Of a stretch of 25,644 bases of DNA, positions 2,385-19,154 are shown one piece after another. A program made the position numbers and the translations under genes. Location: sequence record NZ_CP033919.1; one strand, 5' to 3'. The stretch comes from a plasmid. The notes beneath the pieces were generated by a model. The model saw only the letters and a program-made list of their open reading frames with translations, was not told the DNA's origin and searched no databases. Position 1 is the first letter of the stretch. Every line of letters starts with the position of its first letter.

Positions 2385-3104
2385 TTAAATCCCTAATAGT
2401 CCAAATAGCTCATCCTTTTTGGTGGTAGCAATAGTGATGGCTTTTCCGTTATTCAGTTCAATAACGTTTCCTGAAACAGATTTTATTGAAATTAATTTTA
2501 CAATAAAAGAACGTTGAACTCTGAAAAATTTGGGAGGAACCAAGATGTCTTCCATAGATTTTAAGGTAGCCAATGTTGTAAAGGATTCTGTATCTGTAAC
2601 AATTTTAAGATAATCTCCCAGAGCTTCTACATACAGAATGTCATCTAAGATTACCTTTACGAGTTTTCCATTTACTTTAATAAAAATACGATCTACCGGG
2701 GTTTGTGTTTCCGGAGAAGAAGTCTCCGCCTTGGAAACAGTCTGCATCCTTTCTTTAGCACGATTTACCGCTTTAAGGAAACGATTATAGGCGACTGGTT
2801 TTACAAGATAATCAACAACCCCGTTTTCAAAGCCTTCTAACGCAAAATCTCTGTGAGCCGTGATAAAAATAATAGAGGGTGGTTTTGTAAGTGAGCGGAT
2901 AAGATCAATCCCGCTGATCTTGGGCATCTGAATATCACTGAAAATAATATCCACTTCATTGGACTGAAGATAGGTTAATGCGTCAATTGGATCATCATAG
3001 GAGGCCTGTAATTCCAAGAAAGGGATTGTTTTTACAAAATCTACTATAAGTTCTTTACCAATAGGTTCATCATCAATTACGATACATCGAAGTTTTTCAC
3101 TCAT
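2385..3104 (-). CDS. LytTR-family two-component response regulator
   Basis: Has an N-terminal receiver domain (IVIDDEPIGKEL... DIIFSDIQMPKISGIDLIRSL) and a C-terminal LytTR DNA-binding domain (IFIKVNGKLVKVILDDILYVEALGDYLKIVT). Overlaps the upstream kinase gene by 1 nt. Confidence 0.85.
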   Translation of the reverse strand: MSEKLRCIVIDDEPIGKELIVDFVKTIPFLELQASYDDPIDALTYLQSNEVDIIFSDIQMPKISGIDLIRSLTKPPSIIFITAHRDFALEGFENGVVDYLVKPVAYNRFLKAVNRAKERMQTVSKAETSSPETQTPVDRIFIKVNGKLVKVILDDILYVEALGDYLKIVTDTESFTTLATLKSMEDILVPPKFFRVQRSFIVKLISIKSVSGNVIELNNGKAITIATTKKDELFGLLGI

Positions 3105-4270
3105 CAGGCTAAATTTATTGAAAGCGAAACAAAGAAACTTAATTCCCTGTCTTCTATTACTATTTCATGGTTATTAGGATAAATAAGGTTTAATCTTTTC
3201 TCTACATTTTTCACCCCTATTCCCCCTAAAGATGTTTTTTTAACACCATTATTTTCCTTATCATTCTCGATAGCAAAGTAAAAAATATTATTCACAATAT
3301 TAATACTAATTTTCAAAAAATTATTCCCCGTAGATTTTAATCCATATTTGAAAGCGTTTTCGATGAATGTAAAACACAGTAATGGTGCTATCTGAATATG
3401 ATCAATATTATCCTCTACAGAAATATCTAAAGTGATCTCTTTATCTGCAGCGTATCTCATTCTTTCCAAATAAAAATAATTTTGAATAAAATCCAGTTCT
3501 TTCTGAACCAAAACTTTCTCAGTATTAGACTCGTATAGCGTATAGGCCATGAGGTCCGAAATATTGATAATTGCATCCGGAGCACTTGGATCTTTCTTCA
3601 CAACCAATCCGTATAGGTTATTCAGGGTATTAAATAAGAAATGAGGGTTGAGCTGTGCTTTCAAAAAGTCTTTTTCTATATTAAGATTTTGAAGTTCTAG
3701 ATCCAACGTTTGTTTTTGAAGATGGATCGTTCGGCTAAAAAGCCTTGAGATATCAAACAAGATCTTAACGAAAAAAGGAGGCGAAAAGGAATAAATTACC
3801 AACGTTGCATTTCCAAAAACAGCTTTATAAGACAGGGTCTCCAGGTAGGATTGATTGGCATTCTTACTGATAACCCCTTTCAACGGTCCATCATGAATAT
3901 CAATCCCCAAATTATATAGAACACTGAGTTGCAAATGATTAACAGCCATCCAAACATAAATAGAAGCAGGAATACTGAGAATAATAAAAACGATTCCCCA
4001 TACTCTGCTTTTAAATATTTTCGGAACAACGGCATAAAAGAACAGATAAAAAACAGCCATATTATTAATCGTTCCACGCCCTGTTAACAACAAACTCAAC
4101 TTAAAAGGGATTTTCAGCTCCAGGAAATAGTTAAAAAAAAGTAATATCGCAAAGAAAATCCACATACAGACATGACAAAGAAACCGGTTACCCGGAGTAT
4201 AAAACTTATCAAAATTAAACTGTGAAATTTTTTCTAAAAAAGGACTTATCTTTTGGTTTGATGTATCCAT
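3104..4270 (-). CDS. Membrane sensor histidine kinase, LytS/YehU-type (His_kinase PF06580-like)
   Basis: The N-terminal roughly 200 aa carries about 4 TM helices. The H-box LKAQLNPHFLFNTLNNLYGLV and a C-terminal HATPase region (LLCFTFIENAFKYG... SLGGIGVKNVEKRL) are present. Confidence 0.8.
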   Translation of the reverse strand: MDTSNQKISPFLEKISQFNFDKFYTPGNRFLCHVCMWIFFAILLFFNYFLELKIPFKLSLLLTGRGTINNMAVFYLFFYAVVPKIFKSRVWGIVFIILSIPASIYVWMAVNHLQLSVLYNLGIDIHDGPLKGVISKNANQSYLETLSYKAVFGNATLVIYSFSPPFFVKILFDISRLFSRTIHLQKQTLDLELQNLNIEKDFLKAQLNPHFLFNTLNNLYGLVVKKDPSAPDAIINISDLMAYTLYESNTEKVLVQKELDFIQNYFYLERMRYAADKEITLDISVEDNIDHIQIAPLLCFTFIENAFKYGLKSTGNNFLKISINIVNNIFYFAIENDKENNGVKKTSLGGIGVKNVEKRLNLIYPNNHEIVIEDRELSFFVSLSINLA

Positions 4271-4274
4271 ATAA

Positions 4275-18821: not shown

Positions 18822-19007
18822 TTAAAGAGCATCGCATTGTAAACTATTACATGAATGCATTAAACAACTTAGAGTAGCATCCATCTCCTGTTCTCTAGAA
18901 CCAGTACCCCCTTTCAATTTGTTAAGCTCAGTCTCCTGAAGTCTGGTAATAGTATCTTTAGTAAGAATTACCTTTTTTTCTAATTTTACTTGCTTTTTGC
19001 TCATCAT
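18822..19007 (-). CDS. lanA: Precursor peptide P15 (61 aa; the start may be the second Met): ...LQETELNKLKGGTGSREQEMDATLSCLMHSCNSLQCDAL
   Basis: From the ORF track. Confidence 0.8.
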   Translation of the reverse strand: MMSKKQVKLEKKVILTKDTITRLQETELNKLKGGTGSREQEMDATLSCLMHSCNSLQCDAL

Positions 19008-19016
19008 TTTAGAAGC

Positions 19017-19154
19017 TTATTGATTGTAGTTATCTATTTCATATCTTACAGTAGGCCTTCTTCCTCCCGTGTATTTTTGTAACTGTTCGTTGTCTAGTTC
19101 CTCATGCCATTTCTTAAGCTCTGAGATTGTTTTTTTTACTTTTGATTGGTTCAT
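19017..19154 (-). CDS. 45-aa Cys-free peptide with a GG leader (candidate signalling peptide): MNQSKVKKTISELKKWHEELDNEQLQKYTGGRRPTVRYEIDNYNQ
   Basis: Hand translation (under 60 aa, so not in the track). The leader has the same architecture as the LanA leaders (K-rich, EQLQK.TGG), but the 14-aa core has no Cys. It sits between the OMP gene stop (19176) and P15. Confidence 0.4.
   Translation of the reverse strand: MNQSKVKKTISELKKWHEELDNEQLQKYTGGRRPTVRYEIDNYNQ

Follow-up and report, generated by a model that had tools for sequence, protein, structure and literature searches.

What switches on an operon for peptides made by ribosomes and modified after translation (RiPPs), one that carries its own two-component system? 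The question is raised by a 25,644-bp plasmid of Chryseobacterium sp. G0186 (NZ_CP033919.1), a whole contig that we call the window, whose sole cargo is a single lanthipeptide-type RiPP operon. The second gene of this operon encodes pep45, a 45-residue cysteine-free peptide with a double-glycine (GG) leader, and its last two genes encode a membrane histidine kinase and a LytTR response regulator. The original prediction took pep45 to be the unmodified autoinducer of this pair. Read from its sequence and its relatives, the locus gives good support to an autoregulated peptide circuit, within which pep45 is a possible but unproven pheromone and appears less likely in that role than a second cysteine-free peptide, pep43, encoded on the opposite strand. 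On balance, the window probably holds a RiPP operon that regulates itself and is built around a regulatory cassette conserved in Bacteroidota, with a ligand that the locus is likely to make itself and with pep43 as the favoured ligand.

An operon that contains its own regulatory genes

On the minus strand the genes run in the order outer-membrane protein (OMP), pep45, 15 LanA precursors, two LanC cyclases, a luciferase-like (LLM) oxidoreductase, LanB1, a C39-peptidase ABC exporter (C39-ABC), LanB2, kinase and regulator. The operon spans about 19 kb, its genes all lie on one strand, and its intergenic gaps are at most 81 nt. The elements that matter most for its regulation are as follows.

1781-1863, plus strand: P(pep43), the second promoter, with repeats TCGATG, TCGGAT and TCGAAG at G-to-G distances of 21 and 21 nt and a -7-like box CAAATTTG starting 31 nt past the G of the last repeat
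1885-2013, plus strand: pep43, a 42-aa Cys-free peptide (MKNQINSLESKLVIRKKVIKNYATTKEIKEQSVTVSVSSTFF) downstream of P(pep43)
2034-2396, plus strand: ORF120, an open reading frame (ORF) of 120 aa after pep43 that converges on the regulator gene
2385-3104, minus strand: LytTR response regulator, last gene of the operon (PF00072 and PF04397)
3104-4270, minus strand: membrane histidine kinase (PF06580 His_kinase, E = 1.1e-22, the sole Pfam match)
4275-7259, minus strand: LanB2, the second full-length dehydratase (PF04738 and PF14028)
19017-19154, minus strand: pep45, 45 aa, with leader MNQSKVKKTISELKKWHEELDNEQLQKYTGG followed by core RRPTVRYEIDNYNQ
21568-21653, minus strand: P(OMP), the operon promoter, with three direct repeats and a -7 box
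21650-21642, 21628-21620 and 21608-21600, minus strand: P(OMP) repeats CCGTTATAT, CCGATAAAA and TCGAAAATA, at G-to-G distances of 22 and 20 nt
21575-21568, minus strand: P(OMP) -7 box TACTTTTG, starting 31 nt past the G of the last repeat

All elements listed by the original prediction are present, but the locus starts one gene further upstream than had been claimed, with the OMP gene and its promoter, and it takes in pep43 and ORF120 (1885-2396, plus strand), which had been missed.

The operon does end, as described, in a PF06580 kinase and a LytTR regulator, both intact. The kinase has readable NPHFLFN (His box), IENAFKYG and GGIGV boxes, and hydropathy places about four transmembrane (TM) helices within its N-terminal 190 residues, with one periplasmic loop of about 38 residues (residues ~113-150). 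Neither 5TMR-LYT (PF07694) nor GAF matched it at E <= 0.01, and with PF06580 only and about four TM helices it is not of the HPK10 type (AgrC/ComD-like, 6-7 TM, HATPase_c_5). The top NCBIfam matches of the regulator are BtsR and LytR; what had been presented as a new pairing of PF06580 with LytTR is the standard LytS/LytTR arrangement, to which YpdA/YpdB also belong (PMC4847170). Full-length homologues of the kinase, at 50-98% identity, occur widely across Weeksellaceae, Flavobacterium and Pedobacter. To our knowledge, essentially no function is known for the many PF06580/LytTR pairs of Bacteroidota.

The two promoters share one design, in which three direct repeats of 9-10 nt, phased at about 21 nt, are followed 31 nt on by a -7 box. 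LytTR-type direct repeats had been expected upstream of 21545, and those of P(OMP) were found there, with a geometry conserved across genera. The box TACTTTTG fits TAnnTTTG, which we take to be the Bacteroidota -7 consensus (Bacteroides and Flavobacterium promoters). Five plasmid variants agree almost throughout the last ~125 bp ahead of the OMP start codon (ATG), and the ~230 bp further upstream are scrambled. In Elizabethkingia occulta, the chromosomal OMP promoter of a module whose kinase is 64% identical to that of the window has ACCGATAATC, TCCGCTGAAA and ATCGAAAAAA before TACATTTG in the identical 22/20/31 geometry; a Riemerella promoter has two repeats and the 31-nt distance in common with P(OMP). 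P(pep43), whose repeats lie at 1781-1830 (those of P(OMP) at 21600-21650), was picked up independently by a composite repeat/-7 pattern and is alignable in 13/13 Chryseobacterium sequences (the window and 12 further loci). This composite pattern has two matches in the window against 0.0025 expected from Markov-1 simulations, and in 419 kb of related loci it matches equivalent positions only. A scan for sigma-70 promoters and terminators gave counts equal to the shuffled expectation, the sigma-70 consensus being unsuited to Bacteroidota; a terminator-like hairpin lies at 2395-2378, 3' of the regulator gene.

LytTR sites are usually direct repeats of 9-11 nt with spacers of 11-13 nt (PMC4847170), and the promoter repeats fit this rule in both length and spacing. 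We regard the triple repeats as candidate sites of the regulator. Since these candidate sites would control the very operon in which kinase and regulator are encoded, that operon is predicted to be positively autoregulated. In the mechanism that we propose, the PF06580 kinase would phosphorylate the LytTR regulator, which would then bind the triple repeats and activate both promoters. P(OMP) would drive the genes from OMP through the regulator, P(pep43) would drive pep43 and ORF120, and the operon would raise the levels of its own kinase and regulator in a positive feedback. The kinase ligand would most probably be a peptide made by the locus itself.

The constant partners of the kinase and regulator

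A scan of a genome collection with the kinase gave 17 loci, which were annotated by tblastn with the window proteins. Where kinase and regulator are 68-93% identical to those of the window, a LanB2 orthologue (59-84% identity) always lies directly before them and ORF120 and pep43 after them. This set of LanB2, kinase, regulator, ORF120 and pep43 is found in the window and in 12/12 other Chryseobacterium loci examined, whatever the cargo, which can be lanthipeptide genes, peptides of a DFFDIN type or nothing visible. Loci of the last kind comprise L015 and L017, whose contigs stop just upstream of LanB2, and L009/L010, which have a LanB2 remnant only. LanB1, LanC, the LLM oxidoreductase, the C39 exporter and pep45 occur in the closest plasmids only (L012 and L013), and LanB1 is confined to lanthipeptide-cargo plasmids (84-93% identity). 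Ten loci without LanB1, LanC and pep45 have, directly upstream of kinase and regulator, a LanB that shares 59-71% identity with LanB2; judged by these relatives, LanB2 belongs to the conserved regulatory cassette and not to the cargo. When kinase identity is 64% or less (Elizabethkingia, Riemerella and Pedobacter), LanB2 and pep43 are gone. E. occulta and Riemerella retain an OMP of the same family together with the repeats. The OMP-kinase-regulator modules of Elizabethkingia are chromosomal, and a tblastn search with the proteins of the window found no RiPP genes in the flanks of 10 kb fetched on each side.

The same partners recur in other hosts. A tblastn search of PLSDB with LanB1 returned six Bacteroidota plasmids (three from Hymenobacter and one each from Chondrinema, Spirosoma and Fibrella), and in 6/6 of these Cytophagales plasmids LanB adjoins a kinase and a LytTR regulator, with PF06580 confirmed for both kinases tested. 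All six also carry an ORF of the pep43 kind, 39-49 aa long and either unannotated or 'hypothetical', such as MKTQNSISKKIALRKRTITKLDTVKSVNKKQSTTITTTSTISF in Chondrinema and MKSPKAAPKFQLVKTVVTRFAPAQTGKRAGSSSGTDSVTSVLSSF in Hymenobacter. In Chondrinema litorale (L032, 13914-20534) and Hymenobacter sp. YIM 151858-1 (L034, 11938-18415) the cassette stands alone. It consists there of LanB, the LytTR regulator, the kinase, a Ser/Thr-rich Cys-free ORF of 43-45 aa and a LanC-like or adjacent hypothetical gene, and no exporter, PF14905-type OMP or further RiPP genes are annotated within ~12 kb. In the other Cytophagales plasmids the cassette lies beside OMP-headed arrays of graspetide, thiazole/oxazole-modified microcin (TOMM) or lanthipeptide precursors. 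Because a pep43-type precursor, LanB, a PF06580 kinase and a LytTR regulator are adjacent in 12/12 Chryseobacterium loci and 6/6 Cytophagales plasmids, these four appear to form the constant unit, which corresponds to 1885-7259 in the window.

Within this unit, the leader of pep43 is conserved (KLVI[KR]K[KR]VIKNY) and is followed by a Ser/Thr-rich, Cys-free tail that ends in SSSFF. Its family comprises 15 protein clusters, of which all organism-named ones are from Chryseobacterium and all named ones are 'hypothetical'. A hidden Markov model (HMM) of the window's LanA leaders gave no significant match to pep43, nor did the lanthipeptide leader model NF038153 (E = 0.4). We consider pep43 a likely substrate of LanB2; DFFDIN-type peptides, which could be other LanB2 substrates, are absent from the window, and they too gave no significant match to the LanA-leader HMM. 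The phyletic pattern, in which LanB, a pep43-type peptide, kinase and regulator stand together in every locus examined, would make pep43 a better candidate for the signal than pep45.

The second gene behind P(pep43), ORF120, has no Pfam or NCBIfam match, and a sequence search of solved structures gave nothing useful. Aligned with the receiver domain of the regulator by hhalign, it matches colinearly over 105 columns with 24% identity (pairwise E = 0.0033, probability 9.6%). It keeps the phospho-acceptor Asp (WD46, in IIFWD) and lacks the N-terminal acidic DD pocket. There is thus a weak case that ORF120 is a stand-alone degenerate receiver-like domain, which might act as a phosphate sink or connector protein. 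A counterpart of ORF120 may follow the LanB of the Fibrella plasmid (L033, 17421-17723).

pep45 is a conserved part of the lanthipeptide cargo

The gene of pep45, listed by NCBI under Chryseobacterium sp. G0186 as a hypothetical protein, starts 21 nt past the OMP gene and ends 9 nt ahead of the first LanA. Its 14-residue core has no Cys and one Thr, as first described. The leader ends in ...LQKYTGG, has hydrophobic residues at -4, -7 and -12 as in C39 substrates, and is without the N-terminal half of the LanA leader, the half for LanB recognition. The claimed likeness to the LanA leaders holds for the 12 GG-proximal residues and not for the rest, in that the LanA-leader HMM aligned just these 12 residues, at 0.3 bits, and NF038153 (lant_leader_L1a) did not match pep45. 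The GG-processing exporter that had been reported for the operon is present as well, with PF03412, PF00664 and PF00005 and with the catalytic Cys (MDCGPASL) and His (NHFVVL) motifs of its C39 domain retained. Because the leader is of the C39 type and has no L1a match, and because the C39 domain is intact, pep45 is probably cleaved and exported and not processed by LanB. A plausible fate is release by C39-ABC as an unmodified or barely modified 14-mer, most likely through cleavage after Gly31 and export to the periplasm with little or no modification.

Five homologues of pep45 were found (73-80% identity), and every one with fetched context lies on a variant of this plasmid. They share the invariant motif LD.(E/Q)QLQKYTGGRR.TVRYE.D.YN; the first 19 residues vary freely, and the GG box and the core RR.TVRYE.D.YN are nearly invariant. 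Over codons 20-45 the proportion of synonymous differences (pS) is 0.32-0.84 against 0-0.05 for nonsynonymous ones (pN) in five plasmid variants, frame and length are identical in 6/6 variants, and the core is better conserved than both the N-terminal part of its own leader and the adjacent LanA cores. By these measures pep45 is no chance ORF but a genuine gene on which purifying selection acts strongly.

The range of pep45 is narrow. A phmmer search of 1.84 billion representative proteins returned only its own cluster and two spurious repeat proteins (one ankyrin-like, the other a translated tandem repeat), so that no relatives are detectable outside one plasmid lineage. Within that lineage, to which it is confined, pep45 is present in every lanthipeptide-cargo plasmid variant. 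It is absent from at least nine Chryseobacterium loci in which kinase and regulator orthologues (68-80% identity) are combined with other RiPP cargo or none and with the same promoter design, and from the Elizabethkingia modules (64%). The co-occurrence of pep45 with kinase/LytTR pairs that the original prediction had anticipated is therefore not borne out across relatives, where the pair stays without the peptide, and it holds in the lanthipeptide-cargo lineage, where the peptide is constant. As pep45 is found only in the closest plasmids while kinase and regulator persist elsewhere, its distribution places it in the lanthipeptide cargo module and not with the kinase/regulator pair.

An independent case comes from plasmid unnamed8 of Spirosoma oryzicola. 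Directly before its OMP gene, a 69-aa Cys-free GG peptide is encoded (L031, 589-798), in which ...EDMEAILGG is followed by RPIGSATVSLDIETERTNG... The cluster continues with OMP, two LanC, LLM, C39-ABC, six LanA, LanB, HlyD, a peptidase, a PF06580 kinase and a LytTR regulator. Two pairs of GTCGAAA repeats, 21 bp apart and the sole such pairs in 27 kb, lie one before the 69-aa ORF and one before OMP. BLASTP of pep45 against this peptide gave an alignment limited to L..E.....GGR. Since the GG box alone aligns, we rejected homology and treat the peptide as an analogue, that is, as an independent case of a Cys-free GG peptide beside an OMP in a LytTR-controlled lanthipeptide operon. Given this analogue, pep45 stays a candidate for a cargo-specific signal. 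An unannotated pep43-like ORF of 39 aa (21014-21133) lies just past the LytTR gene of the same plasmid.

Candidate ligands of the kinase

As the best candidate for the kinase ligand we tentatively put forward LanB2-dehydrated pep43. The pep43 core and the periplasmic loops of the kinase diverge in a positively correlated way (r = 0.33, permutation p = 0.011; partial Mantel test controlled for the kinase half), a signal that is weak and confounded by phylogeny and that we use as a hint only. Several other observations also weigh against a circuit driven by pep43. A GG motif is missing from the peptide, and the plasmid offers it no obvious exporter or leader protease, which leaves its route to the periplasm unexplained. 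Its core is fairly conserved and not diversified, unlike that of many pheromones. The sensor half of the kinase evolves faster than the catalytic half, and its identity shows no step between loci with and without pep45, nor between cargo types. The OMP-kinase-regulator modules of Elizabethkingia and Riemerella lack both LanB and pep43, so the ancestral ligand cannot be either peptide, and the kinase could sense something generic. As to the binding sites, the iterons of the plasmid (described below) have the TCCGTAAAA core and the 21-bp period in common with the promoter repeats and are so similar to them that one weight matrix scores both; it is formally conceivable that a Rep protein, instead of the regulator, binds the promoter repeats.

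We now think it unlikely that the unmodified 14-mer RRPTVRYEIDNYNQ, exported by C39-ABC, is the autoinducer to which the PF06580 kinase responds and through which LytTR switches the operon on. The strong purifying selection on the core would fit such a role, as would the Cys-free sequence, the C39-type leader without the LanB-recognition half, the presence of exporter, kinase and regulator in one operon under LytTR-type repeats, and the retention of pep45 in every lanthipeptide-cargo variant. The Spirosoma cluster, in which a Cys-free GG peptide with its own repeat pair accompanies C39-ABC, kinase and regulator, points the same way, but that peptide is not demonstrably homologous, and pep45 itself has no detectable relative beyond one plasmid lineage. 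Against the idea stand the nine or more loci that keep kinase, regulator and promoter design without pep45, the Elizabethkingia modules that keep OMP, pair and repeats with no RiPP genes in the fetched flanks, and a sensor half in which no break separates the loci that have pep45 from those that lack it. Release from the cell is a further difficulty: the plasmid carries no gene for an HlyD or TolC partner, and by itself the exporter would take peptides only as far as the periplasm. With pep43 as the preferred ligand, pep45 would act as a second, cargo-specific signal or as an accessory exported peptide.

Class I lantibiotic clusters (nisin, subtilin) are, as an established rule, induced by their own mature product. 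By that rule the kinase would sense the mature lanthipeptides or the envelope damage that they cause, in the manner of NisK/SpaK or LytS, and pep45 and pep43 would merely be further exported products. We consider this improbable, less likely than pep45 as autoinducer. A small, mostly intramembrane sensor such as that of the kinase is indeed typical of envelope or peptide sensors, and in Flavobacterium johnsoniae co-evolved with the antibiotic producer Burkholderia thailandensis 5/5 isolates were mutated in an adjacent LytTR regulator/histidine kinase gene pair (PMC10197871), which hints that such pairs matter in interbacterial competition. Yet the same kinase/regulator family, with a conserved sensor, accompanies unrelated cargo (lanthipeptides, DFFDIN peptides with SagB-like enzymes, graspetides and TOMMs) and also no cargo. 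A sensor specific for the product would need re-tuning for every new cargo; what stays constant is the pep43-type peptide.

Lower still we place the possibility that the kinase keeps an ancestral role in competition or nutrient sensing, detecting an external compound via the OMP, with the RiPP cargo inserted under an existing switch and no peptide of the locus as the signal. In Elizabethkingia and Riemerella the OMP lies just upstream of kinase and regulator without LanB, the three-repeat promoter is present in the former and partly in the latter, and in Chryseobacterium the cargo between OMP and LanB2-kinase-regulator varies as if inserted into a fixed scaffold. In the Cytophagales, however, the constant neighbours of kinase and regulator are LanB and a pep43-like peptide, with no PF14905-type OMP annotated in the stand-alone cassettes, and in the window a promoter of the same design drives pep43, which is expected for a self-made signal or product and not for a pure input sensor.

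That pep45 is a decayed LanA copy without function, as its place at the head of the LanA array and the shared GG-proximal leader box might suggest, is very improbable in the light of its many synonymous and few nonsynonymous differences over codons 20-45 (pN 0-0.05, pS 0.32-0.84), its constant frame and length in 6/6 variants and a core more conserved than its N-terminal leader and the neighbouring LanA cores.

Relation to known systems

A wider form of the pep43 reading, which we hold to be speculative and less probable than pep43 as ligand in the window, would see a phylum-wide, agr-like cassette. In it, a LanB-dehydrated pep43-type peptide would be sensed by a short PF06580 kinase, LytTR would act via triple repeats to switch on OMP-headed, often plasmid-borne RiPP arsenals, and GG peptides such as pep45 would serve as extra signals. 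Like agr (AgrD, AgrB, AgrC and AgrA), the cassette combines a precursor, a maturation enzyme, a kinase and a LytTR regulator, with repeats in the promoter of the precursor. Unlike agr, it has no AgrB-type protease or thiolactone, the maturation enzyme would be a glutamyl-tRNA-dependent dehydratase (LanB), and the kinase family differs. The likeness would be a functional analogy, with the regulator as the sole homologous component.

The GG-pheromone regulons of Firmicutes (ComCDE, BlpABC-RH, PlnABCD and SppIP-K-R) resemble the locus in their GG peptide, C39 exporter, LytTR regulator and ~21-nt repeats, and in having kinase and regulator inside the regulon. They use an HPK10 kinase (6-7 TM) and two repeats, whereas the window has a PF06580 kinase (~4 TM) and three repeats, a diderm host, an OMP-headed operon, and LanB and a second Cys-free peptide as conserved partners; moreover, the link between pep45 and the kinase is here a candidate read from sequence. 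LytS/LytR, BtsS/BtsR (YehU/YehT) and YpdA/YpdB share with the window the PF06580 core, LytTR and direct-repeat sites with 11-13-nt spacers (PMC4847170), but the window sensor lacks 5TMR-LYT and GAF, and their ligands are pyruvate or membrane potential and their targets transporters or holin-like genes. NisRK and SpaRK are likewise two-component systems within a class I lanthipeptide cluster, as the pair is here, where it would likely induce its own promoter; they consist of OmpR-family regulators and EnvZ-like kinases in place of LytTR and PF06580, and the present cassette also occurs with non-lanthipeptide cargo.

Walker et al. 2020 (PMC7268733) catalogued class I lanthipeptide clusters of Bacteroidota in which GG leaders go together with a C39 protease, and ChmABC from Chryseobacterium sp. 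OV715 serves as a worked example (PMC9993889). The leader type of LanA, the combination of LanB and LanC and the C39 exporter are the same as in the window; a kinase/regulator pair, OMP, repeats and Cys-free peptides are not described in these two studies. RODEO drops Cys-free ORFs by design, and filtering of this kind may explain why peptides of the pep43 and pep45 type were overlooked. Mining rules that drop Cys-free ORFs near LanB remove the very peptides that are most likely to be regulatory. Our literature search found no described peptide-based cell-cell signalling system in Bacteroidota, and no description of a PF06580/LytTR pair controlling Bacteroidota RiPP operons, of the triple-repeat promoter or of a cassette of pep43-type peptide, LanB, kinase and regulator.

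Gram-negative lanthipeptide operons have been noted as largely silent in the laboratory (PMC11270710). If the circuit works as proposed, it would explain how such silent Bacteroidota RiPP clusters switch on, and peptide addition or regulator phosphomimics would be a practical handle for activating them. With two short promoters, two candidate signal peptides, one kinase and one regulator on a 25.6-kb plasmid, the locus is a compact and testable case.

Plasmid backbone and replication region

Joining the ends of the window restores an intact ParA of 257 aa, which shows that the window is a complete circular plasmid. The restored protein is nearly identical to the ParA on a 24.8-kb sister contig of C. 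oncorhynchi. The backbone consists of HigB/HigA, ParA, a 256-aa ORF, a Toprim/DUF3991 protein and a 339-aa ORF. It is common to 22-25-kb contigs of several Chryseobacterium species and partly present on a 46-kb contig that has the LanB2-kinase-regulator cassette without visible cargo. A megablast search of PLSDB with 18000-25644 gave no matches. The mapped features of the backbone are as follows.

25313-25644 and 1-442, minus strand: ParA-type ATPase, 257 aa, intact once the window ends are joined
728-1385: HigB/HigA pair of the backbone
~21960-21978: a lone further iteron copy
22063: DnaA box, near the iterons and an AT-rich stretch
22178-22303: six iterons of 21 bp each (GGATAATGTCTCCGTAAAANN), directly after the 339-aa ORF

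The region of the iterons looks like a replication origin. The 21-bp tandem repeats at 22178-22303 were considered as LytTR sites and rejected for Rep-type iterons, because they adjoin the 339-aa ORF of the replication module and are followed by the AT-rich stretch and the DnaA box at 22063. They are also set apart from the promoter repeats by their long conserved part GGATAATGTCT, which the promoter repeats lack.

Cargo genes and further contexts of the cassette

As cargo the operon carries what is, for Bacteroidota, an ordinary class I lanthipeptide cluster of the L1a leader type, with the following genes.

7341-9608, minus strand: C39-peptidase ABC exporter (PCAT)
9520-12564, minus strand: LanB1, full-length class I dehydratase (PF04738 and PF14028)
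12531-13466, minus strand: luciferase-like (LLM) flavin oxidoreductase (PF00296; TIGR03558 E = 1.7e-34, below the model cut-off)
13479-14603 and 14600-15736, minus strand: two LanC cyclases (PF05147 LANC_like, E = 5.1e-13 and 3.4e-21)
15766-19007, minus strand: 15 class I LanA genes with Bacteroidota L1a leaders ending in KGG
19176-21545, minus strand: OMP, a TonB-dependent-receptor-like beta-barrel (PF14905 E = 9.6e-83, PF13620, PF07715 weak)

The OMP, encoded by the first operon gene, combines CarboxypepD_reg, a weak Plug and OMP_b-brl_3. Proteins of this type lie upstream of kinase and regulator or head peptide cargo in Elizabethkingia, Riemerella, Hymenobacter and Spirosoma. NF038153 matched 4/4 LanA tested (E = 1e-10 to 1e-9), and the LanA array is built from a 227-bp tandem unit in 10.7 copies. 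The LLM oxidoreductase is probably a tailoring enzyme. The exporter matches TIGR03796 (E 1e-140) and TIGR01193 (E 1e-112), both below the curated cut-offs, and its true start is likely the ATG at 9542 (MKFIAQHDQMDCG...). Most LanA cores (15766-18183) have a second GG about 12 residues past KGG, for example ...DQDLEGGSFSCIGASCNWCG, with a single G in three copies; if this second GG is also cleaved, the final lanthipeptides would be 13-residue peptides.

In several other Chryseobacterium loci the cargo between OMP and LanB2 consists instead of tandem 21-aa peptides (MKPVTTSPIENDFFDINIIC[WF]), a dehydrogenase of the SagB type, an ABC exporter that lacks C39 and a retropepsin-like protease. This DFFDIN cargo, a RiPP type that has apparently not been described before, lies at 2044-6887 in Chryseobacterium sp. 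Leaf405 (L016) and at 1883-6882 in C. arachidis (L014), and also occurs in L018, L019 and L022. One peptide of 28-33 aa is followed by up to ten tandem 21-aa peptides; the region past the DFFDIN box has no Ser and no Thr, and the SagB dehydrogenase matches TIGR03605 above the cut-off.

The cassette and its relatives are also found in other settings. In the stand-alone cassettes of the Cytophagales, a LanC-like gene next to a Cys-free substrate is odd. Elizabethkingia meningoseptica (L011, 9187-13906) has a kinase and regulator of 52% identity between genes for an Rce1-like CPBP protease and a P-type ATPase, without OMP or LanB, so the kinase/regulator family has other contexts too. On the chromosome of C. 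capnotolerans (L009 and L010, 7027-12227), a remnant of the cassette (LanB2, kinase, regulator, ORF120 and pep43) lies among cargo genes of the type IX secretion system (T9SS). Its LanB2 is intact in one assembly and in three pieces in the other, and a second pep43-like gene is found 1 kb away (13223-13360).

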